DNA from: Candidatus Omnitrophota bacterium
GTDB lineage: Bacteria; Omnitrophota; Gorgyraeia; Gygaellales; Profunditerraquicolaceae
Direction of reading: 5' to 3'
DNA: 64,000 nucleotides
Assembly: GCA_041651115.1 (NCBI GenBank)
Contig: JBAZJY010000002.1
Span: 73,846-137,845, forward strand
Shown: positions 1-45,011 of the stretch, piece after piece
Position numbering within the stretch: the stretch's first letter is position 1
How the letters are laid out: each line of letters begins with the position of its first letter
Notes under the pieces: generated by a model
Database searches by the model: none
The model's input: the letters and a program-made list of their open reading frames with translations, nothing else
Told to the model about the DNA's origin: nothing
Position numbers and translations under genes: made by a program

Positions 1-3000
1 AATGAATACGCTTCAGAGCTTATCCGGGAACTGATCATCCCAAAGCTTACCCGGGAAATAAATACTTCTAAGAAATACGCATCCCTCAGGCAGGTGTACT
101 ATTCTCTGATCCTGGCGCAATGGTTTAAAGCAAAATTCAATTCGGGCAGCGGCAAATATGAAAACCTCATAAATAGAAAAAACCTTTCCGGCCTGACTTC
201 GCAAATATTCTGGGATAAGCAATTTTACTTCCAGCAATATCAGGATTCATTCAATAAGGGCGAGTACAACCTGAAAGAAAATCGCTCCACTCCCTTTGGC
301 CAGACCATCCGCACCTATATGAGCGGCGGCCTTACCCTGGGCAATGAAATATCGTCAGCTATACAGGCTCAAACCATCGCTTCCAAACGCAGCAGCAGTC
401 CGCTTGCCAATAAAACTTTTAATCAGGCGGCAGAGATAGATGCAAACGGTAATATTAGGATAGCCGAAGGCAGTGTTTCTGCGCAAGAAGAGAATATCGC
501 TATTTTGCACGCGCTTATTAATCAGGGGCCTAAGGCATTTTTGTCCGGAGAAAAAGGCGATGAAAACAGGGATAGGGTAATCGGTATTGCCGAAAAATTT
601 GATTTCTACGTGGAGGAACTTTTAGACGAAGAGGATGAAGAAGATTTTTTTGAGTACGTTTTAGGGCTGGAAAAGCTGCTTAAGTTAAATCCCAGGGTCC
701 ATCAAGAGCCATCGGAGATGTTCGTCCATCTGGATAATCTTTCGCATAATCTGGGGCACATTAACAATCTTTTTAATATCGCGATCATAAGTTTCAATAA
801 AGTAGATGAAGTGGAATTAAGAACAGGGCAGATGAATATGTATCTTGCCGAGTACCAGGCCATAAGAAAACTGCTCTCCTGGGATGGCCTCAACAAAATT
901 AATCCGGAAGCCGTTAGCGACTTATTTACCGATACTATCCGTTATGTGGTGGGTTCGCGCGCGCTTTTTAAAGAAATAGGAGATATCTTAAATTCCAACA
1001 GGGACATGATAAGGGAAAAAGAAGAGGGACTGTATAGCCTGATAGACGGCTATCTGGAAAGAGCCAGGCTGGTTGATTCCGAATGCACCCATAATCTTGG
1101 GATCCTGAAACGGCTCAAGGAAGAAATATATGAGCCCGGAAAAAAAGAGCCGATTAACATTGGAGTTTCTGTCTACGAGGCTATTGAGCCATATTTGCAT
1201 AATGGCCATAGGGTCAAGTTTATTACGGATTTCCGGGATCAGGGAATGATGGTGCAGGCCAATGCTTTGCGCCTCTCCTATACATGGACTAATCTCATCG
1301 GGAATGCCATAGATGCCGTTAATAAATTCAAGCGTACTCCCGAAGGAAGAGGAGTCGATGGGATATTGACTGTTTCTGTCAGGCCGGTGCATACGGAGAA
1401 TACGGACATAATGGAAGTATCGTTTCAGGATAACGGCGGCGGTATTTCCAAGGCGATGAGCGAGAACGACAGGCTGTTTCTGCGCGGCGAATCCGACAAG
1501 CAGGGGGGCACAGGCAGGGGCCTTGCTTTGTGCAAAGAGGCTGCGGAATTTCACGGCGGGACTATAAGTGTTGAACCGAGGAGAGTGAGTGAATTTGACG
1601 ACAGGCCCGAGAAAACAGAAGATCCGAAGCGCGGCGCTAGATTTGTCATCCGCCTGCCCGTTGTTGCCAGCTCGCCGGTGGCTATAAGCGAGATCGCTCA
1701 AAAGGATAGCGATAAGATCACCCGGGAAGATAAGGCCGCCATGCTTAACCACGCGCGGCAAATGGATTTTTACGTCCAGCGCATAGAGGAAGAGAACGAT
1801 AGCCAAAACCTGAAAGCATATGCGACAGCGCTCGCAATTCTGGAAAAAGAAGGAGTTAAGCCGGCAGAAGGAGTTTACGCGGGCAAGCAAATAGATTTTA
1901 ACATCGTCAGCCACGATATCGGCCATATGATCATAGAAATGACCGTACTTCTCGGTATTTTGGAATTAGTGCCTGTAGAGAACGATCCGGCTGGTTATAA
2001 AAAGAGGGCATTGGAGCTGTGGGCTAAAATTCAGGCTTGGCAGGCAATCTTAGACTGGGAAAAAACCCTTGGCATTGCTCCCGGCATCCTCTCACGCATG
2101 ACAGAGGAGATTGGCAGCGATCTTGACAGCGTGGGCAATTTTTATAACGAGGTAAAAGATTATTTTAACCGGCATGTAGATAGTGAGATAGTGGCTGATT
2201 ATTCGGCGGCAGTAGACTTGCGCAGAGGAGAGAGAGAAATAATTGACTTTCTTCTTAGTGAGCTTAAGAACAACATATCAGATCCTTCAAGGGCCGCGGC
2301 CATAGATGAAAAATTTATTATCAATAAATTAGTGTGGTCTTATGAAAAACTAAAATCGGCTAACCTGAACTTTCAACTAAGGTTAAGAGCAGAAAATCTC
2401 CAAACATATGGAAACCCGCTGCGCGTTTATTCTATTTTTAAGAACCTGATCACTAATGCCGTAGATGAAGCAGCGGGGCTTGCCACTGGAAGCAAGTTTG
2501 TTAAAACGCCATCCGGTAAGTTTACAGAGGTTCGGCTTACCGATGAGCAGAAAAGGACTGTTGAAGAAAATAAAACCATCATTATCGCGAATAAGAACAT
2601 TAAAGAAGGCGACAAAGATTACGCGGAGTTCAGCATTGAAAACATAGCCTATATAACTCCGGAGATGAATGCGGAGTTATATGGCGGCAGAAAACTTTTT
2701 GCCAAAGGCCAAACCGGTAAAGAAAGCGGCACAGGCCTTGGCCTGGCCCTCATTGAAGAGATCGTTAAAGAGCACGGCGGAAGCGTTGATTATTACATTA
2801 AAGATATTCCCGGCGATGATACGCTTAAAAAGATACAATTTGTGGTAAAGCTGCCCGCGGTTTCCAGCTCGCCGGTCAGCGGCGATAAGGTTATCTTGAG
2901 CACGGCGGGAACAACAATCTCTTTATCTTCCGGAGACCAGGCCCGGATAGTAAGTGAGTTCCGGAGGCTGGCCAATCAAATTACTACGGAATTTTCGGAA

Positions 3001-6000
3001 GAAGATTTCCGCGAGAGCATGGGTTTAATTGTCGGCACGCATGAAAACGGAGCATATAGAATTACCAGGCTGGTTCCGATCACTGAGTTTGAAAAAGGCA
3101 GCAGCTATGATTTCCTTCTTCCCGGAAAGGCCCAGGTGATCCGGATCATTGAGAATGAACTGCGGAGCGGTGAACAGATCCTGGGTGATTACCATAATCA
3201 TTCTTATGAAAGACTGCGCAGTTTTCAGAAACCGGGCCCCAGTTCAGAGGATGCCATGGGAGGCGGATACTTGAATATTATCGGATACGAGAATAAGATC
3301 GCAAATAACCGCCTGAACATAGTTTTAGAGCCCGAATTGGACTTGGATAAGATAACCATGGATGAGCTGGCGAATTTTGACCCGTCTAATTCGCGGGTTA
3401 TCCTCTATCCTTACATATCGCCGAACAGGGGATTGGAGAGAAGGATTATCGAGCTGGATAAGATCTATTTGGATGCCTTGACAAAAGAAGTTAATTCCGG
3501 AGCGACCAGCTCGCCGATGAAATTGGGGGATCTTAAGAAATTAGCTCTCGGCGCAATGATGGCGTTTTATTTGTCCTGCTTGAGCTTCCATAACGTTAAT
3601 GCCCAAGTCAATGACACGCCGGCAATTGATTATTATTTTACCGTTAGCTCGCAGCTCCAGGATTCCATAAACAACTTAGTAAAGAAAGAGTTTTATGACA
3701 TAGTTTCGTTATCGCCAGACCAGATAAAGCAGCTGTTGACGGCAAAAGACCTTACGGAATTTAAGTCGGTGGCTGAATCTATGTTAGAGAAGAAGGGGTT
3801 AAGCCTGCCTTATTATGCACCGGAGGATATTGCGGATTTAGTATCTTCCTCAAAAACAGGGGACAGCGATATCCAGAGGCTAATCAGGATCAAAGGCGGC
3901 CTGAATTATCTCAGTCAGCATCATCCCTGGGTATTCAGGTTCGTTATGTTTAATGCCCAAAGAATAATTTTTGATTTTACTTATAATAAAAGCGGGGGAT
4001 ATGAAAATGAGCGCAAAATATATTACGGCGTTTTGCTTGACAACTATGCCATTGAAGAAATCGCCGCATTTCTGGCGCATGAGGCCGCGCATAGCTTCTT
4101 GGAGCTGATGGGAATGCCTGTAGGCGGGGCCGCAGGAGAGAGCGTTGCGATATATTTAGGTGATCTGATATTAAAAAACGCAAATATCAGGTTAGGCGCA
4201 GATAAATTTATCCTTAATTTGTCTTCTGAAGCGGCAAACAGAGGTCATTGGGGGCCGTGGCAAGATGCATATTATGAAGAAACCTATAATAAGGCCGGCA
4301 TTGAATTAAGGGATCATCTCAGGCACTTGGAATTTATTACTAAGCTGCCCGCAACATTGTTGGATATCATCATATTTGGCTCAAAAGACCAGTGGGAAAT
4401 TTATCCGGAATACAGGCGGCTGGGGCTCGATGCGCTTGGGGAGATATTAGAATCTGTTGAGTCGCAGCCGGTTGAAACCAAGGAATTCTTCGGAGTTTTA
4501 TTTGCCAACTATTTTGATGAATTGTGGAACGCGGGGGACGGGCTATATCGTGAATTGATACGCGCATATTTATTAAAAAACACAAACTACATCCCTGCGG
4601 CAAAACAACGGTTGATATTAGATGAGGTCGGCAATGCTCAAGTGGATGCCAGCTCGCCGGTGAAGGCTGCAGGGTTCTTGAAGACGACCGCGCTGTTATC
4701 AATGCTGTTTTTCCTGCCGGTGTTTGTCCAGCAGTCATTCAGCCAGAGCGCAAGGGCGCCTACCAATGTAGAGATGACGATATATATGTCGCGCGTAAAG
4801 GACCTTTCCGAGGCCAAAGACTTAGGCAGTTTATTAAAGATCATCAAAGACGATAAGGCCCATGCATTGTTTAAGATGCAGGCGATGGATGCCGTGCAGC
4901 GCATGCCTATGGTAATGAATAAGGCCTCGGACCTGATGAGGGCACTTGGCGCGATTGAAGACATTTATAATGATCCGCAGACCAGCAATCTAATAAACGG
5001 GAATACAGTCAGCTGGCTGGAACAGATCATGAAGAAATATGAAATTATCTGGTGGGGGGGTAAGGATACTCTCTTTGCGCCGATAGATGTTTATAAAGGC
5101 ACAGCAGAACTGATCCAGCAGATCGCTGCCGATCACCCGGATTTTATCAAGCCCGGGTCGTTGGCAGAATTCATCAGCAGGCAGCGCCAACCGCAGCTGC
5201 TTTATAAGCCGTGGCCGCATTATCCGGTTTATCAAAATCCGCAGTTTATCGCCGGGGTGCAAAAATATAACGCCGACACGCGGGAATACTATTCCATTTC
5301 CATGGCTGTTTATGACCTGCTGAATCTGGCCGGGGTAGGCTTAAGCGATACGACTATCAGCCAGGCAACGGATTATATTATGCAGCAGCGGCAGGCCTTT
5401 GGCCAACGGGTATTCTTTGATAAAGAGACCACAGCCATATTCATTGTTACCGAAGGAGAGGAATCTCAAAAGGACGTTGATCTGTTACGGGGCATTGCGC
5501 TGGACGCAGGAGTCTTGGAAGAAAATATCCATATTTTCCGGGGCATGAAAGATAAGCGTAAGCTCGCAACGCTTATTTCCGAGAGCACCGGGCCGCTAAC
5601 CATCGCCACAAATATGGAAGGGAATGAAGCGTCCTGGCGCATGGATCCCGAAGGCAATCAGCTTTCTTATGCAGAGTTTGCCAAATGGCTTGAGGCACGA
5701 AGTATTTTAACCAATGTAAATATTATTCTTGACGGCTGCCTGTCGACCAACCTTACAGAAGGGATGATCAATCTGCTTTACGATCCTTATGATCCTGCTT
5801 CCAAAGCAGCAGCTATCAGAAGGGGCCTGCCGACCGTAGTCTCAACTTCGGACGATAACCACCCTAGTTATGCGGACCAGCAAGGCCAGAGTTTCTTTTA
5901 TTCCGAGTTAAGCCTTATGCCGCGCGTTCCCGGAAAGCCGCTCCTGGGCAGGCAGATATTAGATACCGAGATTGCCGGATATAAACGGATGTTCGTTCTT

Positions 6001-9000
6001 GAAAATCCGCGCGTTTCGGTTTTTCTGCCGCTGGAGGGCAGGGAAGAGTTAGACCATATTTTCGGCGGCAAGACAAAATGGGGAAAAGTCTGGTTTTTCC
6101 CGATCGGCCAGGCTGAACCTAAGACCGATACGCTTAAGCCGGATGGCCTGCTGGCGCTCGGGCCAAAAGAAACCGTTACCAGCTCGCCGCTGAAGGCCGG
6201 CGGGTTCTTTAAAACAGCTGCGTTGGTATCAATGTTGGTGCTCCTGCCGGCATTGGGCCAGCCATTATTCGGCCAGCAAGCTGAACTTTTATCTACCGAT
6301 GCGCAAGGCCGCGCAGAGTTTAAGAACAATGTCTCTCTTACTTTGGCATCTTTAGGGGGAGCCGTTGATATTACGGCAGCTGCCGAGGCTGATCGCCCCC
6401 GTACATACAATTACAACCCTCAAACCGGGATGCTGGAGATTACATATGCTATTCCGGGATATGTCAATGTCAGCAAACCCAACGACGTAGTTACAATAAC
6501 CGCGCGAAAAATTGTTCCGCAGTTTGCCCTTATTACCGATGAATCGGGAAGCCAGGATAAAGAAGCCATGACCGAGCAGGGCCGTCAGTTCGCAAGAGTC
6601 CTGCAGTTTATCCAGAATAGATATCCTGGCATGCGCAATATCCGAATAAGCACGGTTACCGATCCCAACCCTCAAGTTTCCTCTTATTCCGGTGCAGCCG
6701 ATGCGCAAGATTATTTTAATCAGCCGGTATTCCAGAGCGACCCGTTACTGGGAGCCACGCATTTCGTAGAGGCAGTAAGAAATACAATCAAATCTTTTAA
6801 TAATAGCGCTCCGGGGATAATTTTAGCAGCCTCTTCAGATTTTGAACAGGATCCTTTGGCCAGAGGCAGTGATCCTGTAAAACCGGAAGATTTGAGAGCT
6901 CCTTTTTATGAAATGGCCGGTGAATTAGAGGAGCTTAATACCCACCTTTTTATTGCAACGCAAAATGCTGACAGTCAAAAGAACATCCGAATATTGACGG
7001 ATGAGTATCTTAAAAAGTGCGAGGCGGAGGGAAAGGCGCCGTATATTCATTACCAGGTTGTAGGCGCGGAAAATATGAGCGCCGCATTTACCTCTTTTAT
7101 CGCTGAATCTGATTTTCCTGAACAAATTCCTTTACCTACGCAGAATAAGGATATCAAGATAGATTTTCTTTCTTCTGGCCCCGGCGGGCAAGACGCCTCC
7201 GGAGCGGTCAACCCGCAACAGGGGTCCCTTGCCGGTAGTATAAAAATAAACGGAAGCACTTTAGTCCTAAAAGATTTATTTAAGGGATTAGGGGATGTTG
7301 ATTCCGCGCAGGTCGTTTTTTCGTATGAACCCCTGATAGTTCCGCTACCATTAACGCACACCCCGCAGGATATTTACCTGGTGAAAGATTATAGCGGCAG
7401 CGTCAGGGATATAAAGTGGAATGCTTTCCTGAAAGACTTACTTATTAAATTAAAAGAGAGAGGAGACCGGATTATCGGCGGGACATTCTTTGGCCCGGAA
7501 GTCATCTCGGTAGCCGGTTTTGATGGCGTTTTAAGCGCCGTGGAATCGCCCAGGGGTGGGTATACCCATGGCTGGGCGGCCTTAAAAAAGATCTTCCAGC
7601 AAATGGACGATATGCCCGATAATGCGACATTATATTTTATTTCAGACGGCGTATTTAATGACCGGGATTTTACTGACGGGGAGAAAGAACGGGTCAAGGA
7701 AAAATTCCTGCAGAAATTAAAGGATAAAAACATACGCTTTGTCTGGATCGCGCCCGAAAAGGCTTCTCCGGGCGTAACCAAATTTTTGTCAAATGCCGTT
7801 AATAACGGAAAAGCAGCGGACAATCTCCGGGCTTCTTTAAGCCCCTATGCCACGCTGTTGACATTTGCCGTTGCTACCAACCCGGACAGGGGAGTGGTGT
7901 TTTATAAAAACGAAGATACGATTTCCGGCCTGGCCGAAGCCACGGGGCTTTATAGCAGGAAAGTTATCGATGTCCCGGAAAAATTCCCCATAAGGCAGGT
8001 GCAAATATTGTTTCAGGATGAGGGGAAAGAAAAGCGGATAGTAGTAGATATGCAAGACACAGAAGAAAAGCCCGGTTCCAGCTCGCCGATCACCGAGTTA
8101 TCCGGCCAGCTGCCTGAAGAAGAAGCCGCGCAGCTGGAAATACCATTTGTATACCCCCAGAATGCGCCTACCGTCATCTTGCCGCTGAAACTCAACGGCG
8201 CTGATAAAAAAGAATTAATGGAATATAAGGGTACCCTGGAGATTTTAAAAGCGAAATTATCAAATTACCTTGAACATCCCGAATATCTTAAAGACAAAGG
8301 AAAGCTCGAAAGCGTTTTGCCTATCGCCAAAGAGGCAATCAGCGAATTTTTGGGAAAAGTAGCTGCTGCCGATAAGTTAAGGCCGGTTTATGATACCTTT
8401 GCCCGGGCGGATTTTGATGCTCCTATAAACACAGATTTTGGCGACCAGTTTAATGGTTTTGTTGCTTATGTTCAAATGGGGATAAACCAACTTGATTCGC
8501 AAGGATCCATTTCATCGCGTTTAATTTTGAGCCTGATAACTACGCTTACCCAAACCATTGAATTTTTAGAGAACGCAATTTTAATCTTTGAAAAACTCAC
8601 TGGCCCCTCAAAGAGCGAATTTAAAACCAAGCTGTCAAACGGAGGATCGGGAAGCCCTTCCGTCCTCATATTGGATCTCAATGACCTTTTAAGCAGTGTC
8701 GGCTCAGAGATCAGCTCGCCGGTAAAAACAGAAGCTACGAATGATAAGGGCGGTATTGATTTTAGGGCGTTGCCGGTTGTGACGCAGCCGGTTTTAGGGA
8801 CGGTTCTCAGCCAAGGAGAAAAACGTCCCCAAATGGGGACGCTTTTACCTTGGACTGAGAACCGTCCCTCTCTTGACCAGGAATTACAGCAGATTAGGAA
8901 GATGATTGATTCCGGAATTGTTCCCTCAAGCGAGAGAATCAAGGAATATGCGCAGACTTGCGGCAGCCAGGACATAGATAAAATATTATCTTGTATCGCG

Positions 9001-9159
9001 GATATCTTAAGACTGGAAGAAGAGCGGGTTGAGGAAACCGATCCGCAGTTAAGACAGTTGGTCATGGTGCTTGAATCGGATAAGCCGGCAAATGAGATGC
9101 AGCTGGCAGTAGCCGCGATCTCGTTTTCCGCGAAAGATCCGGTTCTGGTGAAACCTTAA
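1..9159 (+). CDS. Giant multidomain protein, 5'-partial (frame open from nt 1; >3,050 aa). It has two GHKL/HATPase_c ATPase modules, an HExxH zincin-like motif, a vWA domain with a DxSGS MIDAS motif, and SSP-punctuated modules with internal signal-peptide-like segments.
   Basis: Frame 1 is open from nt 1 to the TAA at 9157-9159; the ORF track starts it at an in-frame GTG at 94. HATPase_c N/G1/G2 boxes are visible twice (NLIGNAIDAV..DNGGGIS..GGTGRGLALCKE at ~1290-1540; NLITNAVDEA..GTGLGLALIEEIVKEHGG at ~2440-2770). HEAAH lies at 4078-4092, DYSGSV at 7387-7401, and SSP junctions at 1667, 2864, 3506, 4649, 6179, 8078 and 8712. Confidence 0.7.
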   Translation, partial: NEYASELIRELIIPKLTREINTSKKYASLRQVYYSLILAQWFKAKFNSGSGKYENLINRKNLSGLTSQIFWDKQFYFQQYQDSFNKGEYNLKENRSTPFGQTIRTYMSGGLTLGNEISSAIQAQTIASKRSSSPLANKTFNQAAEIDANGNIRIAEGSVSAQEENIAILHALINQGPKAFLSGEKGDENRDRVIGIAEKFDFYVEELLDEEDEEDFFEYVLGLEKLLKLNPRVHQEPSEMFVHLDNLSHNLGHINNLFNIAIISFNKVDEVELRTGQMNMYLAEYQAIRKLLSWDGLNKINPEAVSDLFTDTIRYVVGSRALFKEIGDILNSNRDMIREKEEGLYSLIDGYLERARLVDSECTHNLGILKRLKEEIYEPGKKEPINIGVSVYEAIEPYLHNGHRVKFITDFRDQGMMVQANALRLSYTWTNLIGNAIDAVNKFKRTPEGRGVDGILTVSVRPVHTENTDIMEVSFQDNGGGISKAMSENDRLFLRGESDKQGGTGRGLALCKEAAEFHGGTISVEPRRVSEFDDRPEKTEDPKRGARFVIRLPVVASSPVAISEIAQKDSDKITREDKAAMLNHARQMDFYVQRIEEENDSQNLKAYATALAILEKEGVKPAEGVYAGKQIDFNIVSHDIGHMIIEMTVLLGILELVPVENDPAGYKKRALELWAKIQAWQAILDWEKTLGIAPGILSRMTEEIGSDLDSVGNFYNEVKDYFNRHVDSEIVADYSAAVDLRRGEREIIDFLLSELKNNISDPSRAAAIDEKFIINKLVWSYEKLKSANLNFQLRLRAENLQTYGNPLRVYSIFKNLITNAVDEAAGLATGSKFVKTPSGKFTEVRLTDEQKRTVEENKTIIIANKNIKEGDKDYAEFSIENIAYITPEMNAELYGGRKLFAKGQTGKESGTGLGLALIEEIVKEHGGSVDYYIKDIPGDDTLKKIQFVVKLPAVSSSPVSGDKVILSTAGTTISLSSGDQARIVSEFRRLANQITTEFSEEDFRESMGLIVGTHENGAYRITRLVPITEFEKGSSYDFLLPGKAQVIRIIENELRSGEQILGDYHNHSYERLRSFQKPGPSSEDAMGGGYLNIIGYENKIANNRLNIVLEPELDLDKITMDELANFDPSNSRVILYPYISPNRGLERRIIELDKIYLDALTKEVNSGATSSPMKLGDLKKLALGAMMAFYLSCLSFHNVNAQVNDTPAIDYYFTVSSQLQDSINNLVKKEFYDIVSLSPDQIKQLLTAKDLTEFKSVAESMLEKKGLSLPYYAPEDIADLVSSSKTGDSDIQRLIRIKGGLNYLSQHHPWVFRFVMFNAQRIIFDFTYNKSGGYENERKIYYGVLLDNYAIEEIAAFLAHEAAHSFLELMGMPVGGAAGESVAIYLGDLILKNANIRLGADKFILNLSSEAANRGHWGPWQDAYYEETYNKAGIELRDHLRHLEFITKLPATLLDIIIFGSKDQWEIYPEYRRLGLDALGEILESVESQPVETKEFFGVLFANYFDELWNAGDGLYRELIRAYLLKNTNYIPAAKQRLILDEVGNAQVDASSPVKAAGFLKTTALLSMLFFLPVFVQQSFSQSARAPTNVEMTIYMSRVKDLSEAKDLGSLLKIIKDDKAHALFKMQAMDAVQRMPMVMNKASDLMRALGAIEDIYNDPQTSNLINGNTVSWLEQIMKKYEIIWWGGKDTLFAPIDVYKGTAELIQQIAADHPDFIKPGSLAEFISRQRQPQLLYKPWPHYPVYQNPQFIAGVQKYNADTREYYSISMAVYDLLNLAGVGLSDTTISQATDYIMQQRQAFGQRVFFDKETTAIFIVTEGEESQKDVDLLRGIALDAGVLEENIHIFRGMKDKRKLATLISESTGPLTIATNMEGNEASWRMDPEGNQLSYAEFAKWLEARSILTNVNIILDGCLSTNLTEGMINLLYDPYDPASKAAAIRRGLPTVVSTSDDNHPSYADQQGQSFFYSELSLMPRVPGKPLLGRQILDTEIAGYKRMFVLENPRVSVFLPLEGREELDHIFGGKTKWGKVWFFPIGQAEPKTDTLKPDGLLALGPKETVTSSPLKAGGFFKTAALVSMLVLLPALGQPLFGQQAELLSTDAQGRAEFKNNVSLTLASLGGAVDITAAAEADRPRTYNYNPQTGMLEITYAIPGYVNVSKPNDVVTITARKIVPQFALITDESGSQDKEAMTEQGRQFARVLQFIQNRYPGMRNIRISTVTDPNPQVSSYSGAADAQDYFNQPVFQSDPLLGATHFVEAVRNTIKSFNNSAPGIILAASSDFEQDPLARGSDPVKPEDLRAPFYEMAGELEELNTHLFIATQNADSQKNIRILTDEYLKKCEAEGKAPYIHYQVVGAENMSAAFTSFIAESDFPEQIPLPTQNKDIKIDFLSSGPGGQDASGAVNPQQGSLAGSIKINGSTLVLKDLFKGLGDVDSAQVVFSYEPLIVPLPLTHTPQDIYLVKDYSGSVRDIKWNAFLKDLLIKLKERGDRIIGGTFFGPEVISVAGFDGVLSAVESPRGGYTHGWAALKKIFQQMDDMPDNATLYFISDGVFNDRDFTDGEKERVKEKFLQKLKDKNIRFVWIAPEKASPGVTKFLSNAVNNGKAADNLRASLSPYATLLTFAVATNPDRGVVFYKNEDTISGLAEATGLYSRKVIDVPEKFPIRQVQILFQDEGKEKRIVVDMQDTEEKPGSSSPITELSGQLPEEEAAQLEIPFVYPQNAPTVILPLKLNGADKKELMEYKGTLEILKAKLSNYLEHPEYLKDKGKLESVLPIAKEAISEFLGKVAAADKLRPVYDTFARADFDAPINTDFGDQFNGFVAYVQMGINQLDSQGSISSRLILSLITTLTQTIEFLENAILIFEKLTGPSKSEFKTKLSNGGSGSPSVLILDLNDLLSSVGSEISSPVKTEATNDKGGIDFRALPVVTQPVLGTVLSQGEKRPQMGTLLPWTENRPSLDQELQQIRKMIDSGIVPSSERIKEYAQTCGSQDIDKILSCIADILRLEEERVEETDPQLRQLVMVLESDKPANEMQLAVAAISFSAKDPVLVKP

Positions 9160-30746: not shown

Positions 30747-32048
30747 ATGGCTAAAAAAAGGATCATTATTTTAGGCGCAGGCCTTGCCGGCTTAAGCGCT
30801 GCCTGGCACTTAGAGAGGCGCGGGATTGAACCCGTAATCTTTGAGCGGGAAAAAGAAGTGGGCGGCCTCTGCCATTCAAAATCAATAAGCGGATTCGTAT
30901 TTGATTACAGCGGCCACCTGCTGCATTTTAAAACCCGTTATGTTTTTGACCTGATTAAGCGGCTGCTGGGGCATAATCTGGTTGAGCACCGGCGCAGCGC
31001 GTGGGTTTATTTCCGCGGCCGGTATATCCGCTATCCGTTCCAGGCCAACCTCTATGGCTTGCCTCCACGCATTATCAGGGAATGTGTTGTCGGGTTTATG
31101 CGCAGCGCAGCGCCTGCCAGCCGCAGCTATGCCAATTTCCTTGACTGGATCAAGGGGAATCTCGGAGAAGGCATTGCCAAGCATTTCATGATCCCCTATA
31201 ACACAAAATTCTGGACTGTGCATCCGCGGAAATTGACCTGTGATTGGCTGGATGCTTTTATACCGGTCCCGGATTTCGCGCAGCTTATCCGGGGGGCAGT
31301 GGGAGCCAAAGATGAAGCCTTGGGCTATAACGAACGGTTCTGGTATCCTCGCGAAGGCGGTATACGCCAGCTACCTCTGGCATTTGCTTCCGGGATCAGG
31401 AACATCCATACTGCTTGCCCGGTTGCGGAGATCAACTTGCAAAAAAGGCAGCTGAAGCTGGAGTCCGGCGCCAAAGAAAAATTTGATTGGCTGGTATCAA
31501 CGGTAGCCCTGCCAGAACTGCCTTTCATGGTTAAAGATATGCCGGGCAGGATGCAGGGGATGTTTGCTAAACTAAAGTGGAATTCCGTAGTAAATTTAAA
31601 CCTCGGACTTGATAAAAAAGATAATTCCGGCAGGCATTGGGCGTATTTCCCCCAAAAAAATATTTGCTTTTTCAGGCTGGGTTTCCCGCATAATTTTTCC
31701 GACAGGGTCGCGCCTGCCGGGAAAAGTTCGCTGTACGCGGAAGTGGCTTATTCCCCCGATGCGCCGGTAAAAAAAGAATTGCTTAGCAAACGGATAAAAA
31801 ATGATCTGGTAAAGGCGGGGATCATCAATAGCCCGAAAGAAGCTTGCTGTGATGATATTAATGACATAAAATATGCCTATCCCATCCATGACCGTAATTA
31901 CCGGCCGGTAAGGGAGGGAATCCTGGATTTCTTAAAGCGTAACAAAGTAATCTCGTGCGGCCGTTACGGCTCGTGGCGTTATTTTTCCATGGAGGACGCT
32001 ATACTTGACGCCAGGGATGCGGTTGCTCTTCTATCAAAAAAAGCTTAA
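30747..32048 (+). CDS. FAD/NAD(P)-binding oxidoreductase (amine-oxidase / UDP-galactopyranose-mutase-like fold).
   Basis: N-terminal Rossmann motif IIILGAGLAGLSAAWHL..E..GG; 433 aa. Confidence 0.6.
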   Translation: MAKKRIIILGAGLAGLSAAWHLERRGIEPVIFEREKEVGGLCHSKSISGFVFDYSGHLLHFKTRYVFDLIKRLLGHNLVEHRRSAWVYFRGRYIRYPFQANLYGLPPRIIRECVVGFMRSAAPASRSYANFLDWIKGNLGEGIAKHFMIPYNTKFWTVHPRKLTCDWLDAFIPVPDFAQLIRGAVGAKDEALGYNERFWYPREGGIRQLPLAFASGIRNIHTACPVAEINLQKRQLKLESGAKEKFDWLVSTVALPELPFMVKDMPGRMQGMFAKLKWNSVVNLNLGLDKKDNSGRHWAYFPQKNICFFRLGFPHNFSDRVAPAGKSSLYAEVAYSPDAPVKKELLSKRIKNDLVKAGIINSPKEACCDDINDIKYAYPIHDRNYRPVREGILDFLKRNKVISCGRYGSWRYFSMEDAILDARDAVALLSKKA

Positions 32049-32052
32049 AGTA

Positions 32053-33651
32053 ATGAAGCATAAATACGCCTTCCTGTTGATCCTTTTGATCGCCTTCCAC
32101 GCGGTGAATAACTACGTTTGGCTCAAGCAAGATAATGAAAGTTTGGCGAAAGACACCGCCAGCCACGTCAACCGCATAATCTCTATCCGCGAAGAATTAC
32201 AGAATATCGACCTTTTTAGAGAGAAGATCCCGGAAGAACCCGGCCCGTTAGCCACCGTCTTTGCTCCGGGAAGCGCGTGCTGGCCGCAATTCTTCCATTT
32301 TATTGCCGCTTTAATATCCTTTGGCTGCAAGGACATCCTGTTTTGTATCAGGTTTTACAACATGTTGTATTTTGCCCTCCTTGTCGTCGCGGTTTACTTC
32401 CTCGGGAAAAAACTGTTCAATCCCCAGGCCGGCATGCTTGCCGCGTGCATTATCTCTTTTTATCCGGGCGTATTCGGCCTTTCCCGCAAATGCGGCCTTG
32501 ATTTTCCGCTGATAGCTTTTATTTGCGTAGTTGCCTATTTCCTGCTTAACTGCGATAATTTTCAGAAGCGCCTGCCGAGCATATTATTCGGGGTAAGCTT
32601 AGGGGTAGCAACTTTTTTCAAAGTGCAAATCCTGATTTTTATCGCCGGCCCTTTAGCATACGTAGCGCTCAAGGGGCTTATCTATGGCAGAGATAAGAAG
32701 GGTTGTTTTTCCAACCTTTTCTTTTCGCTGGCGCTGGCAGCTGCCATATCCCTGATTTGGTGGAACCGGATCTTTTTTATCGAAGCCCCGGAAGCCAATG
32801 CCTACGCGAAATTAGTTTTTAAATATTTCTCGATTAACGTGCCGCTGCAGATGCGCAAATATTTTGAAGCGCTCTATATCCATATGTCTCCGCTTTTTTC
32901 TGCGGCATTTTTGCTGGGTTTGTTCTTGTGTTTCCGCAAGGCAAGCAGGGATGCGATGTTCTTCCTTGGCTGCTGGATCATACCGCCGTATCTTTTCTTT
33001 TCCGGGATGCTGCCGTACAATAACCAGAGATATATCTTTCCCGTATTTGGCGCGCTTACCCTGATCTCGGCCATGGGATTAATGCAGATCCCCGCCAAAA
33101 AAACAAAGCGCTTTTTAATCGCCTCCCTGTTGATCCTCGGTATCGTGCAGTTTTTCCTGGTAAGCTACCGGGGCGCTCTTGAGCCGTTCGTTTTTACTTC
33201 TGAATTCGGGCAGCCGCCCGAAAAGAATAATCACCGAGCGGTTATGGAAAAGTTCAATTGGATAATCGAAACAGACTGCCCCGGCCAGAAAAGGATCGCC
33301 ATTATCGAGGAGCAATACTTTAAGACGGATTTCTGCATACGCCTCGGATATTTATTAAAGGTGCTGAATAAAGAGAATAAAGTTTTTTTAAGCGCCGGGG
33401 GATTTATCGTTCCGCGTTTCCAGGTTTCAAAAGAATTCCTGGATAATGTAAATGATTTCCAGTTTTTGATCGCCTTTTCCGAAAATGAAGAAGGCCCCGA
33501 CTTTTCCGGGCTGCTGGCGTCTTCTATCAGCGCTGAGCGGGAGGCGGTATTGAAAGTGATGGAGCAATTCAAGTCTTACATGGTCATGGAAAGGGCCATG
33601 CTCCTGCCTGATGAAATCTATGTTTTTCTCTTGAGGCGGCAAGAAGATTAA
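32053..33651 (+). CDS. Multi-pass membrane glycosyltransferase, GT-C superfamily (ArnT/PMT-like).
   Basis: About 12 predicted TM segments, a large C-terminal soluble domain, and its location in a glycan cluster. Confidence 0.55.
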   Translation: MKHKYAFLLILLIAFHAVNNYVWLKQDNESLAKDTASHVNRIISIREELQNIDLFREKIPEEPGPLATVFAPGSACWPQFFHFIAALISFGCKDILFCIRFYNMLYFALLVVAVYFLGKKLFNPQAGMLAACIISFYPGVFGLSRKCGLDFPLIAFICVVAYFLLNCDNFQKRLPSILFGVSLGVATFFKVQILIFIAGPLAYVALKGLIYGRDKKGCFSNLFFSLALAAAISLIWWNRIFFIEAPEANAYAKLVFKYFSINVPLQMRKYFEALYIHMSPLFSAAFLLGLFLCFRKASRDAMFFLGCWIIPPYLFFSGMLPYNNQRYIFPVFGALTLISAMGLMQIPAKKTKRFLIASLLILGIVQFFLVSYRGALEPFVFTSEFGQPPEKNNHRAVMEKFNWIIETDCPGQKRIAIIEEQYFKTDFCIRLGYLLKVLNKENKVFLSAGGFIVPRFQVSKEFLDNVNDFQFLIAFSENEEGPDFSGLLASSISAEREAVLKVMEQFKSYMVMERAMLLPDEIYVFLLRRQED

Positions 33652-40705: not shown

Positions 40706-43075
40706 ATGCCCTTAAGATTACTTTTAGCCGCGTTTATTTTTGTCAATCTGGCCGGATGCAACGCAAAAACCGACCTAGACGAAGCGCGGCAGGCAGTGCA
40801 GCAGTCCAATGTTTCATACATCCGCGCCGCAAAAGCTTATCAAGCCGCGATTTCCCGCGCTAAAGGCAGCGAACAATTAAACCAACTGCATTTTGAACTT
40901 GGCCGGCTCTATCACAGCCGCGGCGATCTAAAAGCCGCTGTTGAAGAGCTCAAAAAAACAAGCCGGCCTGAGGCAGCCAAGCTTATTGCGCTTTCTTATT
41001 TTCGGTTGGGAGACTTTACCGACGCGCTGGAGGCGTTCAATAATCTTAAAGAGCCCGACGACGAAACGCGCTATTACCACGGCCTGACCTGCGAGCGGCT
41101 TAATCTTTATGACCAGGCATTGGATATTTACCGCCAAATAAAGGCAGGACAATTTTCGCGGCTTGCCTCCGGACGCGCCGGCATGATCGAAAGGAAGGCC
41201 GGTCCGGCGTTGATCAAGGATATTGACCCGCGAGCCGCCAAAATAATCGCCGGGGCGCCGGCAGACGAAGAGTACCCTCAGGCAGGGGGACTGATTTTAT
41301 CCTGCGACGAGCGCATTGAAGTTACCGATAAAGATACCCAGATCGCCAGCCTGCATTATATAATTAAAATACTTAACGAGCGCGGCAAAGAAGATTTTTC
41401 CGAAGCCCAGATAGAGTATGATACCACCTATGAGAAGATCGAGTTGGAATATGCCCGCACGATCAAGCCCGACGGCACGGTTGTGGACGTGGGCAGCCGC
41501 CATATCCGCGATGTTTCCAGATACCTGAATTTCCCGCTTTACAGCAATGTCCACGTTTATATTATTTCTTTTCCCGAGATCGCCGAAGGCGCGGCAGTAG
41601 AGTATAAGCTTAAGATCTACCGTAATAAATTGATCAACAAAAACGACTTTGTACTGGATTACCCCCTGCAGACATCTGCCCCGGTGATTTCCGCGGATTT
41701 CTTGCTGGCTGTTCCGGCATCAAGCGATATAAATATAAAAACGCTGAATGAAAAATACAATAATTTTAACGCCGACCTAAAGCCGGCGATTGAACAAACT
41801 TCCGGGCGTAAGGTTTATCGCTGGCAGTTTAAGAACATTCCCCAGATCATCCCCGAAACAGACATGCCGGCAGCAGTCCAGATTAATCCGACGATCCTTA
41901 TTTCTACCTTTAAAACCTGGGAAGATATCCATAAGTGGTGGTGGGCATTGGCTAAGGACAAAATAAAGGCCGACGAAGCAACAAAAAACAAGGCCCGCGA
42001 ATTAACGCAGAAAGTTTCCTCGGAAGAAGAAAAGATCCGGGCAATATACAATTTTTGTGCGCAAAAAATACGTTATGTTGCGGTTGAATACGGCCAGGCA
42101 GGCTATGAGCCGCATAAGGCAGAGGATATCTTCCGGAACAAATACGGCGACTGCAAGGACCAGGCAATACTCCTGGTAACAATGCTTAAGGAGATAGGCG
42201 TAGAAGCATATCCCGTATTGATCCCCACGCGCGAGGCTTATAACCTGGATCCGGATTTTCCTTCTATGATGTTCAACCACTGCATTGCCGCCGTAGTGCT
42301 TGAGGATAAAGTCGTATTTCTTGACCCTACGGCTGAAACCTGTTCTTTCGGCGACCTGCCTGCGGATGACCAAAACCGGCAGGTGCTCATATTTAAAGAC
42401 GGAAAATACGAGATCGCGGCCACGCCGCTTTATCCGGCCGGGCACAATTCAGCCAAGCAGGTCATAGAGATAAAGATCCACAGCGAAGAGAATATTGCCG
42501 CTGAAAAAACAGTTTTCACGCACGGCATGTACGACCAGGCCCAGCGCTATTGGCTGTTATATACCCCTCCGCAGCTGGTTGAAGAAGTGCTGAAACAAAA
42601 GATACAGGAAATTTCCATCGGCAGCCAGCTTGAAAATTACAATATTGATAATTTAAACGACCTGAATAAACCGGTAGTCCTGAAATATGCTTTTAAAGGC
42701 AAAGAATACCTTACTGTCGCGGGGAAGTTAATGATCCTGCCGCAGTTGACAGGGATTGATTCCGGCATTGTTGCAAAGGACAGCCGCCGTTTCCCTATTG
42801 ATTTTAACGTCCTGGAAAGCAAGGAAACGGATTTTAGTATTGCATTACCGGACGGTTTTAAGGTCAAGTATATGCCTGAGAGCGTCAGCGAAGACAGCCC
42901 GTGGCTGAAGTTCAGCGCCGCTTACAGGCAGGACGGCAAGAATATATATTTTCTGCAAAGAATGGAAATGAAAAATACGCTTGTAACTGAAACGGAATAC
43001 CCCGCATTCAAAAATTTTATTGAGCGGCTGGCAAAAAAGATCAAGCAAAGGATCGTGTTGGAAAGGAACAAGTAG
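40706..43075 (+). CDS. Lipoprotein with N-terminal TPR-like repeats, a DUF3857-like region and a transglutaminase-like cysteine-protease core.
   Basis: Lipobox LAGC at the signal-peptide end; YGDCKDQAILLVTMLKEIGVEAYPVLI matches the transglutaminase-core Cys motif. Confidence 0.65.
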   Translation: MPLRLLLAAFIFVNLAGCNAKTDLDEARQAVQQSNVSYIRAAKAYQAAISRAKGSEQLNQLHFELGRLYHSRGDLKAAVEELKKTSRPEAAKLIALSYFRLGDFTDALEAFNNLKEPDDETRYYHGLTCERLNLYDQALDIYRQIKAGQFSRLASGRAGMIERKAGPALIKDIDPRAAKIIAGAPADEEYPQAGGLILSCDERIEVTDKDTQIASLHYIIKILNERGKEDFSEAQIEYDTTYEKIELEYARTIKPDGTVVDVGSRHIRDVSRYLNFPLYSNVHVYIISFPEIAEGAAVEYKLKIYRNKLINKNDFVLDYPLQTSAPVISADFLLAVPASSDINIKTLNEKYNNFNADLKPAIEQTSGRKVYRWQFKNIPQIIPETDMPAAVQINPTILISTFKTWEDIHKWWWALAKDKIKADEATKNKARELTQKVSSEEEKIRAIYNFCAQKIRYVAVEYGQAGYEPHKAEDIFRNKYGDCKDQAILLVTMLKEIGVEAYPVLIPTREAYNLDPDFPSMMFNHCIAAVVLEDKVVFLDPTAETCSFGDLPADDQNRQVLIFKDGKYEIAATPLYPAGHNSAKQVIEIKIHSEENIAAEKTVFTHGMYDQAQRYWLLYTPPQLVEEVLKQKIQEISIGSQLENYNIDNLNDLNKPVVLKYAFKGKEYLTVAGKLMILPQLTGIDSGIVAKDSRRFPIDFNVLESKETDFSIALPDGFKVKYMPESVSEDSPWLKFSAAYRQDGKNIYFLQRMEMKNTLVTETEYPAFKNFIERLAKKIKQRIVLERNK

Positions 43076-43079
43076 TTTT

Positions 43080-45011
43080 ATGGAAAGCAGCGCCTTATCG
43101 CAGCAGTCCCGCAAATATATCCGTTTGGACTCGGTATTCCCGGTTGAATTTCAGGTAATCGGGTTAGACGACGCAACCCGGATGTCCGAATGGCTGCAGG
43201 GTTTTACCCGTAACGTCAGCAAAGGCGGCATTTGCCTTGAAGTAAACCGCCTGCCTGCTGATGTGGCGGCGCTCTTGCGCAGCCGGCAAGCGAAATTGTC
43301 GTTAAAAATAGAAATGCCTGTTTTACGCAGCCCCGTTCCCGCCGTTGCCAACATCGTCTGGATAAAAGAGCCGGAGGGCCATGATCAGAAGTATGTGATC
43401 GGCTTAAGCTATGAAGAGATTGACAGGTGCCAGAATTCAAAGATCATGTTCCAGGCGCGGCTGAAAAAAATAATCCTTCCCGTAGCCGCAGCGATCATCC
43501 TGATCTTGGCATCTGCCTTTTTACTGGGCACTTACTTTAATATGAAATTGGTCCGCGGCAACAAAGCTGCCGTGGAGCAGCTTGTTAAGACCATCCAGGA
43601 ATCAAGCTTTGCCAAGCAAAAAATAAGAGAGATCACCGGAGACCGGGAGGAGTTGCTGTCAAAGATCCAGGCTCTGCAGTTGCGCATAGAAACGGTTGAA
43701 AACGAGAAAGCAAGAGCCGAACAGGAAAAGATCGTGCAGGCCGGGTTCAGCCCGGATATCCACGTGGGAAAGCTGATGCAAGAAAAGTCAGCGCTGGAGG
43801 ATAGCCTTATCCGGCTGCAGCAGAAAGAGAGCGCGATCGCCGAAGAATTGCTGCAGCTTGACCAACGCAAGGCCAGGCTTGAGAAAACGAATCTGGATAA
43901 AATGTACCACTGGCTGGCGATCCATCAAAACCACCGCACCGGCCTGGTAATGAGCTTTGAAGGAGACGGCGAGCTGACCAATTGGGCGTTTGTTTATGAC
44001 CAGTCCCTGGCAGCCCAGGCGTATTTAATTTTATCCGATTTTGAACGGGCAAAAAAAGTGCTGGCCTTTTTTGCCAAGAAAGCGCAAAGGAGCGACGGAT
44101 TATTTTATAACGCTTATTATTCCAACGATTCCACTCCCGCAGAATTTACCGTGCATTGCGGCCCAAACCTCTGGCTGGGCATCGCGATCATCCAGTATTC
44201 CGAGAAGACAAAAGACAACACGTTCATGAAGCTGGCAGAAGAGATCGCGCAGGCGATCATCAGGCTGCAAATGGAAGATCAGGACGGCGGGTTAAGGGGC
44301 GGGCCAAATGTCGAATGGTATTCTACGGAGCATAACCTTGACGCTTACGCGTTTTTTAACATGCTTTATAAGCGCACGGGTAAAAGTCAATATCGCGACA
44401 GCCGGGATAAAATACTGCATTGGCTGAATATACATACTTACGATAAGGAGGATGTCCCGGTCATCCGCGGCAAGGGCGATGCTACGATTGCCACAGATAC
44501 TTATGCCTGGTCCATTGCCGCCATCGGGCCGCAAAAACTGGAAGAGATCGGCATGAATCCCGATATGATCATGGATTTTGCCGAGAAGAACTGCGCGGTG
44601 GAGGTAGATTATATCCGGCCGGAAGGCAAGGCCGTCAAGATCAAGGGTTTTGATTTTGCCCCGCAGAGGCACCTTGGCCGGGGCGGAGTTGTTTCTGCGG
44701 AATGGACCTCGCAGATGGTCATATCCTTTAAGATCATGGCTGATTTTTACTATAAGAAAAAAATGCCGGCTAAGGCGCGCGGTTATGAATTAAAGGCTGA
44801 CAATTACCTGACCGGCCTCGGCAATATGATCATTTCCAGCCCTTCTCCGTCGGGGCAAGGCGACAGCTGCCTGCCTTACGCAACTCAGGAAAACGTAGAT
44901 ACCGGCCACGGCTGGATGACGCCTAAGGGTAAGACTACCGGATCGGTAGCCGGCACAGCATATACACTTTTTGCGTATTATAATTATAATCCGCTGAAGC
45001 TGAAAGAATGA
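43080..45011 (+). CDS. PilZ-domain protein with a TM segment, a coiled coil and a C-terminal (alpha/alpha)6-barrel-like domain.
   Basis: RxxxR (RKYIR) and N/DxSxxG (RNVSKGG) c-di-GMP-binding motifs. One TM (ILPVAAAIILILASAFLL) and a long heptad region. Confidence 0.6.
   Translation: MESSALSQQSRKYIRLDSVFPVEFQVIGLDDATRMSEWLQGFTRNVSKGGICLEVNRLPADVAALLRSRQAKLSLKIEMPVLRSPVPAVANIVWIKEPEGHDQKYVIGLSYEEIDRCQNSKIMFQARLKKIILPVAAAIILILASAFLLGTYFNMKLVRGNKAAVEQLVKTIQESSFAKQKIREITGDREELLSKIQALQLRIETVENEKARAEQEKIVQAGFSPDIHVGKLMQEKSALEDSLIRLQQKESAIAEELLQLDQRKARLEKTNLDKMYHWLAIHQNHRTGLVMSFEGDGELTNWAFVYDQSLAAQAYLILSDFERAKKVLAFFAKKAQRSDGLFYNAYYSNDSTPAEFTVHCGPNLWLGIAIIQYSEKTKDNTFMKLAEEIAQAIIRLQMEDQDGGLRGGPNVEWYSTEHNLDAYAFFNMLYKRTGKSQYRDSRDKILHWLNIHTYDKEDVPVIRGKGDATIATDTYAWSIAAIGPQKLEEIGMNPDMIMDFAEKNCAVEVDYIRPEGKAVKIKGFDFAPQRHLGRGGVVSAEWTSQMVISFKIMADFYYKKKMPAKARGYELKADNYLTGLGNMIISSPSPSGQGDSCLPYATQENVDTGHGWMTPKGKTTGSVAGTAYTLFAYYNYNPLKLKE

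Follow-up and report, generated by a model that had tools for sequence, protein, structure and literature searches.

Members of the bacterial phylum Omnitrophota encode the longest known proteins, which may work as single chains or be cut into pieces. Cleavage of these giant proteins has been proposed from the protease domains they contain, with no cleavage points known, a lack that according to the same authors blocks analysis (West-Roberts et al., 10.1101/2023.11.21.568195). Nielsen and Lui (2026) have described a regular spacing of hydrophobic helices in such proteins, and do not mention caps or junctions of the kind described below. Here, we analysed a 64,000-nucleotide (nt) stretch, hereafter the window, from a Candidatus Omnitrophota bacterium (GenBank assembly GCA_041651115.1, contig JBAZJY010000002.1, positions 73,846 to 137,845 of the forward strand), which opens with the greater part of a gene for a modular protein of 3,295 amino acids (aa). 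A sequence-only reading of the window had pointed out two motifs in this giant protein, these being a zincin-like HExxH and the DxSxS metal-ion-dependent adhesion site (MIDAS) of a von Willebrand factor type A (vWA) domain.

As the best explanation of the whole, we hold it fairly probable that the HExxH and vWA motifs mark two genuine, independent modules of a modular envelope or secreted Omnitrophota protein. The motifs, family conservation, the predicted folds, the modular architecture of caps and junctions, and the taxonomy are what the analysis showed. The most interesting lead, we find, is the SSP junction, which, together with the cap-and-cargo architecture and the internal export leaders, lies outside the framing of the sequence-only reading. 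Both motifs do belong to one open reading frame (ORF) and fall in the distal half of the protein, as that reading had claimed (full-length aa 1603 and 2706 of 3,295). Frame 1 is open from the first nucleotide of the window to a stop codon at nt 9157-9159, and the full-length product is known from a gene call (ENA ERZ27247363, the 487-kb contig k141_3084633), the first 243 aa being encoded upstream of the window. The modules follow one another as N-cap, two histidine-kinase-like modules, a JAB-like segment, the HExxH module (D), a clan-CD-like module (E), module F with its C-terminal vWA domain, module G, and the C-cap. The coordinates of all features are collected in the table.

To identify homologs of the HExxH module, we performed an exhaustive HMMER search of 1.84 billion representative proteins. 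Besides the giant protein itself (P0001, which agrees with the window translation at every one of its 3,052 aa), this revealed four relatives: P0002 (40% identity), P0009, P0010, and P0012. In the alignment of the five sequences (A1), whose relatives are only 25-40% identical, the invariant pattern is E-x-x-H, GG-x-x-GE-x-x-A, and WG-x-x-QD. Here, Glu1361 and His1364 (window numbering) are found in all five sequences and His1360 in four. Judged from composition, the one HExxH in the giant protein is only mildly unusual (0.036 expected), and it is the family conservation that raises it above chance. As to the third metal ligand that the sequence-only reading had proposed to look for downstream, Glu1380 is a candidate, since it is invariant (5/5) and lies 20 residues past the first histidine and 16 past the second, as the fifth residue of the next helix.

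An AlphaFold2 (AF2) model of the module, built from A1, reached a predicted local distance difference test score (pLDDT) of 76.5 and a predicted template modelling score of 0.72. In this model, three short strands are followed by a helix with the HExxH motif (residues 149-167), a six-residue turn, and a helix with the glutamate (residues 174-190), and the order in the zincin-like core is three strands, HExxH helix, Glu helix, and then HWGxWQD. This prediction supports the earlier claim of a helical, zincin-type setting for HExxH, as it puts the motif on one helix of a zincin-like fold. We conclude that the HExxH module is a conserved, uncurated family of predicted zincin fold with a candidate His-His-Glu metal site. 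A mononuclear metal would be held by the two HExxH histidines and by the invariant glutamate of the next helix, located 16 residues downstream, with the HExxH glutamate as the putative general base, and the module would most probably be a Zn-dependent peptidase acting outside the cytoplasm.

Several points weigh against this assignment. P0012 has a glutamate at the position of the first histidine, and the AF2 model was built from a five-sequence alignment only. Moreover, in the structure comparison the closest solved structure is not a protease, but the Fe/alpha-ketoglutarate (aKG) hydroxylase ChlH (PDB ID: 8S5F), with classical zincins ranking below it, namely peptidyl-Lys metalloendopeptidase (6.9), Wss1 (6.7), and the botulinum light chain BoNT/A (6.7). 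Many helical-repeat proteins also matched the model, because of the C-terminal helical bundle in the module. Foldseek gave no match with an E-value below 0.38 for the model, though the non-significant list includes thermolysin, LTA4H, PPEP-3, PprI, abylysin, and ZmpA. The profile check proposed by the sequence-only reading gave no support, as no peptidase family hidden Markov model (HMM) was significant for the module or its relatives. Its best Pfam match, over the motif, is DUF2268 ('predicted Zn-dependent protease'; E 0.12-0.13, 12.4 bits versus a cut-off of 23.6), which matches one of the five family members, and no Pfam family recurs across the five. The sole NCBIfam family to match is TIGR04267, that of the aKG-HExxH hydroxylases (2/5 members, best E 0.004). 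In a word-index protein search nothing was found for the module, a weak negative given that the query's own protein and P0002 were also missed. Likewise, single-protein scans of GTDB genomes and JGI metagenomes gave no relatives, and a scan based on A1 recovered only the locus of P0009 (L082).

The vWA domain forms the C-terminal part of module F, which comprises 630 aa in total. The beta-alpha order of its model is exactly that of vWA domains, and the segments GGTFFG, GGYTHGW, and YFISDG, by which the sequence-only reading had recognised the fold, were located by motif search where it had placed them. In the model, Asp2463, Ser2465, and Ser2467 of the DxSxS motif (residues 24-28) come after a strand (residues 18-24), Thr2522 (residue 83) lies before a helix (residues 85-96), and Asp2549 (residue 110) follows another strand (residues 104-109). 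While DxSxS alone is uninformative (3 seen in the giant protein versus 0.94 expected from composition), it is raised above chance by the predicted fold together with the full MIDAS triad. On this model, we accept the vWA/MIDAS reading, with the predicted MIDAS complete (D2463-x-S-x-S, T2522, and D2549). Such a domain would bind the acidic side chain of a ligand through a bound Mg2+ or Mn2+, and so serve in adhesion or partner capture. What stood of the earlier claim is thus a DxSxS motif that opens a predicted vWA fold, with the threonine and aspartate in register, whereas the profile match fell short, in that Pfam VWA_CoxE covers aa 2509-2594, the Thr/Asp half, at E 0.0014 and only 18.6 bits versus a cut-off of 26.4. 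Besides this sub-threshold score, it counts against the reading that just one sequence went into the model (mean pLDDT 52.5, with the last 110 residues unreliable), and that no relatives of the module were found in a word-index search that missed the query's own protein, the exhaustive search having excluded this module. A match to the sequence of TDP2 in the PDB (E 0.016) was taken as spurious, all structural matches being vWA domains.

The two ends of the giant protein belong to a wider family. The N-cap, a domain of ~350 aa, occupies full-length aa 1-374, beginning with a signal peptide, and is homologous to five relatives (phmmer E 4e-147 to 7e-43). At the other end, the C-cap (~140 aa) starts with KGGIDFRALPVVTQP (consensus KGGID[FL]R.LP) and gave phmmer E-values of 2e-33 to 5e-16. 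Neither cap has a match in Pfam, NCBIfam, or the PDB. A profile of the N-cap finds at least 1,249 proteins, and the named organisms among these are all Omnitrophica/Omnitrophota, with a few entered just as 'bacterium'. We drew 120 listed N-cap proteins from a word-index search, which evidently missed long proteins, since those listed are all 642 aa or shorter. Eight of the 120 are minimal members made up of N-cap, short linker, and C-cap, and other N-cap proteins carry HEAT repeats, a phosphoglycerate kinase (PGK), or an enolase domain (enolase_N) as cargo. In P0002 (926 aa), the order is N-cap, SSPV, leader and HExxH module, SSPL, and C-cap. Because of these N-cap and C-cap homologies, the giant protein is an expanded member of an Omnitrophota-specific cap-plus-cargo family, and HExxH and vWA are two of its cargo modules.

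Between successive modules stands the tetrapeptide SSP[VLMI], with 8 copies in the giant protein versus 0.17 expected. Elsewhere in the window no real ORF contains it, and the only further six-frame match falls in an antisense ORF. In the 120 N-cap proteins, SSP[VLMI] is present 41 times versus 4.06 expected, always after the N-cap, and the permuted controls are not enriched (SPS[VLMI], 2; PSS[VLMI], 1). P0002 codes its two junctions with different codons, and therefore the peptide itself is conserved across species. Seven junctions out of the eight in the window gene share one and the same coding 10-mer, CAGCTCGCCG (C-AGC-TCG-CCG; P ~1e-11 given codon usage), of which the remaining 55 kb hold one copy, at nt 43967 on the minus strand within an unannotated 663-aa ORF (43020-45011). 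An assembly chimera at the repeated 10-mer was ruled out, the assembly having been made at k=141 and the ORF being uninterrupted. Across four organisms, AGY-TCG-CCN, which takes one codon from each serine codon family, is found at 10 of 14 junction sites, and GCC AGC TCG CCG GTA is also present at the junction of an unrelated Omnitrophota gene (L085). Identical junction codons within a gene are nevertheless not a general rule, as L083, L084, and L085 use mixed codons. The shared codons point to descent from a common ancestral junction or to some role of the DNA. As a further possibility, the 10-mer shared by seven junctions and the AGY-TCG-CCN common across genomes suggest that the junctions may also be in-frame recombination points by which cargo modules would be shuffled between genes with N-cap and C-cap. 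We rejected the junction as an internal translation start, as the fourth codon is ATG or GTG in only three of eight cases, and upstream of real gene starts in the window the sequence is A-rich or Shine-Dalgarno-like, unlike CCAGCTCGCCG.

SSP[VLMI] is not universal in the cap family, being absent in P0017, P0021, P0020, P0003, and P0032, and its lack of occurrence in several long relatives with N-cap and C-cap (P0017, P0021, and P0020) is a point against our best explanation. In P0009 (L082, 5445-12071), the module boundaries carry another recurring motif, [RQPK]DGG, at six sites coded GAT GGN GGR, two of which precede hydrophobic leaders; this suggests lineage-specific junction motifs.

Directly after a junction, modules D, E, and F each start with a signal-peptide-like leader, in which basic residues are followed by a hydrophobic core of 13-16 residues and by AxA-type small residues. 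The HExxH module of P0002 is preceded by the same leader as that of the window, and the leaders of modules E and F lie in a 98-nt direct repeat (nt 4649-4746 and 6179-6276, 77% identity). [quoted passage not shown] All four are thus of the N-in type, and therefore cannot all be used in one uncut chain; if only the first signal peptide were used, two ATP-dependent kinase-like modules would lie outside the cell, until residue ~1420. Both HATPase_c modules, as it happens, stand between the N-terminal signal peptide and the first internal leader, an odd topology for ATPases. Since the three distal modules start with a Sec-type signal-peptide-like leader right after a junction, the chain would probably be cut at or near the SSP junctions and the three modules exported as separate proteins. 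It has to be set against this that cleavage at SSP, export, and the identity of the metal are, like the hydrolytic activity and the vWA ligand, matters on which we infer rather than observe.

With regard to what the two motifs are, we consider it very improbable that HExxH and DxSxS are chance matches in fast-evolving filler with no metal-binding function. DxSxS is indeed expected about once by chance in a protein of this composition, and no curated HMM scores above its threshold, but the HExxH residues and the downstream glutamate are kept by relatives of low identity, and the predicted vWA fold has the MIDAS triad on its proper loops. We give equally little credence to the wider sequence-only interpretation, in which protease and vWA would form one unit of a conflict system (anti-phage, stress, or self-processing). 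Combinations of vWA and protease domains occur in known bacterial conflict systems, and three protease-like modules do precede the vWA domain. The supposed pair, however, does not hold together, as ~1,100 residues lie between the motifs, which belong to different modules with two junctions, two signal-peptide-like leaders, and the clan-CD-like module in between. Nor did PADLOC give a match for the HExxH, clan-CD, or vWA modules at E-values up to 1 (the JAB-like segment alone reached 0.04), there is no adjacent MoxR- or STAND-type partner ATPase, and the gene adjoins pyrR-pyrB-pyrC in a housekeeping region of pyrimidine-biosynthesis and V-ATPase genes. Moreover, other genomes have this N-cap joined to PGK, enolase, and HEAT repeats. 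The observation made by the sequence-only reading is confirmed, and its interpretation partly supported. Less improbable, though still unlikely, is that the HExxH module is an Fe(II)/aKG HExxH oxygenase like ChlH, BpmH, or PflC, which would hydroxylate or oxidatively cleave peptides, and whose substrate could be other parts of the same giant protein. This would agree with TIGR04267 standing alone among the NCBIfam families that match, and a set of His-His-Glu would also be in keeping with an iron site of the 2-His-1-carboxylate type. In addition, the fold of the aKG-HExxH family is zincin-like, and PflC cleaves both oxidatively and hydrolytically (PMC12636437). The TIGR04267 match of the window module is, however, poor (E ~0.11, 12.6 bits versus a cut-off of 40) and limited to 40 residues around the motif, and the A1 profile has no match to any PDB sequence, 8s5f included, up to E 10. 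No radical-SAM, MNIO, or precursor gene is found nearby among the pyr and V-ATPase genes, and the Pfam and NCBIfam scans of the giant ORF gave no radical-SAM or MNIO domain. The module further stands behind a signal-peptide-like leader, and aKG would not be expected outside the cytoplasm. Lastly, complete Omnitrophota genomes are reported without an aerobic terminal oxidase (10.64898/2026.06.07.730766), which would point to an anaerobic lifestyle and make an O2-dependent enzyme less likely. [quoted passage not shown]

As to the fate of the chain, we put forward only tentatively that SSP[VLMI] is the processing signal of modular and giant Omnitrophota proteins, and that the 3,295-aa product would be a bacterial polyprotein cut at its junctions, which we regard as possible rather than probable. 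The cutting might be done by its own JAB, zincin, or clan-CD-like module, and would free the three distal modules for separate Sec export, with the kinase-like modules staying in the cytoplasm. Alternatively, the giant protein may never be cut and form one membrane-threaded chain, its segments acting alternately as signal anchor and stop-transfer, and SSP being a flexible hinge; this has a little more to recommend it, though it too stays short of probable. Ser/Pro-rich linkers are common, and we know of no protease with SSP specificity. The clan-CD module of the window, for its part, lacks the catalytic histidine. Furthermore, long Omnitrophota proteins carry transmembrane (TM) helices at ~2% of residues and are mostly predicted to be single chains with a signal peptide and TM helices or with TM helices only, and in the extreme case 331 helices are spread over 122,534 aa, or ~1 per 370 residues (Nielsen and Lui, 2026). 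Against an uncut chain stand the four N-in segments with AxA-type residues downstream, whose joint insertion would be impossible, and the two HATPase modules, which would be left outside the cytoplasm if the N-terminal signal peptide were used. Also, the junction is a specific conserved tetrapeptide with ten-fold enrichment, and its permuted forms are not enriched.

In a Pfam scan of the whole giant protein, the only significant matches were two HATPase_c domains, one in each histidine-kinase-like module. NCBIfam likewise matched histidine kinases, and otherwise TIGR04267 alone. These modules (nt 406-2865) have an H-box-like motif, SH[ND][LI]GH, and are without a TM sensor or receiver domain. 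The JAB/JAMM-like segment gave weak matches (Prok-JAB, E 0.002, 18.4 bits versus a cut-off of 25; PADLOC JAB, E 0.04), and would be the third protease-like module of the protein. For the C-terminal half of module E, we found 30 relatives among the representative matches, and all 30 have HG and D[SA]C[FY]S. Pfam hints among these relatives are to Peptidase_C13 (5 of 12 members, best E 0.003), with single-member matches to C14, C25, and C80, all of clan CD, plus a few unrelated families, all of them sub-threshold, and the module profile gave nothing relevant against PDB sequences. The window copy retains the cysteine, but the catalytic histidine is replaced by glutamate, and by its sequence it is for this reason probably an inactive or altered caspase-like module, that is, a pseudo-protease.

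Downstream, and on the same strand, the window carries pyrR, pyrB, pyrC, tRNA-Arg, carB, fpg, pyrK, pyrD, and pyrF, a V-type ATPase operon, and the genes for EF-G, purH, and folC, as in an ordinary chromosome. V-ATPase subunit A is 75-80% identical to its best matches, which are from metagenome-assembled genomes of Candidatus Omnitrophota. For three further long ORFs (32005-33651, 40706-43075, and 43020-45011; 548, 789, and 663 aa), NCBIfam gave nothing at E-values up to 1e-10.

Features of the giant protein gene in window coordinates; residue numbers are those of the window translation unless marked as full-length.
Feature	Position (nt)	Strand	Remarks
Giant ORF	1..9159	+	Last 3,052 codons plus stop of the 3,295-aa modular protein
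N-cap, C-terminal third	1..393	+	phmmer versus P0021, P0002, P0017, P0003, P0032
Junction 1, SSPL	394..405	+	AGC AGT CCG CTT
HATPase_c, histidine-kinase-like module 1	1264..1662	+	Pfam PF02518, E 1.2e-26
Junction 2, SSPV	1669..1680	+	AGC TCG CCG GTG
HATPase_c, histidine-kinase-like module 2	2545..2802	+	Pfam and NCBIfam scans
Junction 3, SSPV	2866..2877	+	AGC TCG CCG GTC
JAB/JAMM-like segment, HNH-x13-SSED	2968..3252	+	Sub-threshold profile matches
Junction 4, SSPM	3508..3519	+	AGC TCG CCG ATG
Leader of HExxH module, MKLGDLKK-LALGAMMAFYLSCLSF-HNVNAQ	3517..3606	+	Charge +2 before hydrophobic core, -2 after
HExxH module	3607..4650	+	Zincin-like core at ~nt 3961-4281, then helical bundle
11-mer AFLAHEAAHSF	4066..4098		Contains HEAAH
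HEAAH	4078..4092	+	Motif search; aa 1360-1364 (full-length aa 1603)
Glu1380 in GGxxGExVA	4138..4140	+	Candidate third metal ligand, invariant in A1
HWGPWQD	4246..4266	+	W, G, Q, D invariant in A1
Junction 5, SSPV	4651..4662	+	AGC TCG CCG GTG
Leader of module E	4660..4752	+	Signal-peptide-like charge pattern
Clan-CD (caspase/legumain-like) peptidase-like domain	5071..6108	+	30 homologues and weak Pfam matches
NMEGNE	5611..5628		Catalytic His replaced by Glu
LDGCLS	5728..5745		Cys kept
Junction 6, SSPL	6181..6192	+	AGC TCG CCG CTG
Leader of module F	6190..6282	+	Signal-peptide-like charge pattern
Module F, N-terminal part	6283..7362	+	Without detectable relatives (word-index and profile searches)
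vWA domain, b1-a1-b2-b3-a2-a3-b4-a4-b5-a5-b6-a6	7363..7875	+	Predicted fold
10-mer VKDYSGSVRD	7381..7410		Contains DYSGS
MIDAS DxSxS, DYSGS (D2463, S2465, S2467)	7387..7401	+	aa 2463-2467 (full-length aa 2706); directly after strand b1
GGTFFG	7477..7494		
GGYTHGW	7555..7575		
MIDAS Thr2522 in GGYTHGW	7564..7566	+	Just before helix a3
YFISDG	7633..7650		
MIDAS Asp2549 in YFISDG	7645..7647	+	Directly after strand b4
Junction 7, SSPI	8080..8091	+	AGC TCG CCG ATC
Module G	8092..8712	+	Without detectable relatives; no Pfam or NCBIfam match
Junction 8, SSPV	8713..8724	+	AGC TCG CCG GTA
C-cap	8725..9156	+	phmmer versus P0020, P0017, P0021, P0002
Stop codon	9157..9159		

Among known systems, the HExxH module is most readily compared with the gluzincins, such as thermolysin (M4) and the minimal abylysin. 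Shared with these are the HExxH motif on a helix that follows a small beta-sheet, the invariant glutamate on the following antiparallel helix, and weak structural matches to thermolysin, peptidyl-Lys endopeptidase, Wss1, BoNT/A, and abylysin. In thermolysin, the metal ligands are His142, His146, and Glu166, and in comparison the arrangement in the HExxH module is H-x3-H-x15-E, in which the spacer between histidine and glutamate is shorter (15 residues). The module differs further in lacking profile membership in any peptidase family, in having an extra invariant WGxxQD and a C-terminal helical bundle, and in its place as one module within a protein of 3,295 aa, where an internal signal-peptide-like leader precedes it. 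With the aKG-HExxH beta-hydroxylases (TIGR04267/IPR026337; ChlH and PflC/PosC), it has in common a weak HMM signal and HExxH on a zincin-like fold (PMC12636437), but it scores far under the family cut-off, has no RiPP cluster, and is predicted to be extracytoplasmic. This predicted zincin-fold family of HExxH plus Glu is an uncurated one, and would be placed structurally between the proteases and the recently discovered aKG-HExxH oxygenases.

Similarly, in the predicted vWA domain DxSxS falls on the b1 loop, Thr on the a3 loop, and Asp on the b4 loop, as in other vWA/MIDAS domains (Rpn10, LapA vWFA, integrin I-domains, and NorD). In contrast, it is too divergent for the Pfam threshold (18.6 bits), no homologues of it were found in the searches described, and it ends a 630-aa module whose N-terminal part has no detectable relatives; it would add a very divergent MIDAS vWA domain to those known. 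The clan CD peptidases (legumain C13, caspase C14, and gingipain C25) have the His-Gly...Cys dyad of the 30 relatives of module E, whereas the window copy has a glutamate for the catalytic histidine, and all HMM scores are below threshold.

There is also a resemblance to the long multi-enzyme proteins of Omnitrophota (West-Roberts et al., 2023; Nielsen and Lui, 2026). Common to both are the phylum and the tiling of many unrelated domains in one ORF, with HATPase_c as one of the most frequent, along with hydrophobic segments that recur, protease domains within the chain, and a suspicion of cleavage. At 3.3 kaa, the window protein is shorter than the 10-30 kaa cut-offs of those studies. Its framing by N-cap and C-cap and the SSP[VLMI] junction are mentioned in neither of them, and a full-text literature search for the motifs gave nothing relevant. 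The window protein is, in this sense, a mid-sized relative of the giant proteins that can be read completely, with a conserved terminal frame, cargo delimited by a tetrapeptide, and leaders that would be topologically senseless in an uncut chain. Its junction is a concrete and testable candidate for module boundaries and processing sites, and offers a rule by which giant proteins could be split ahead of structure prediction.

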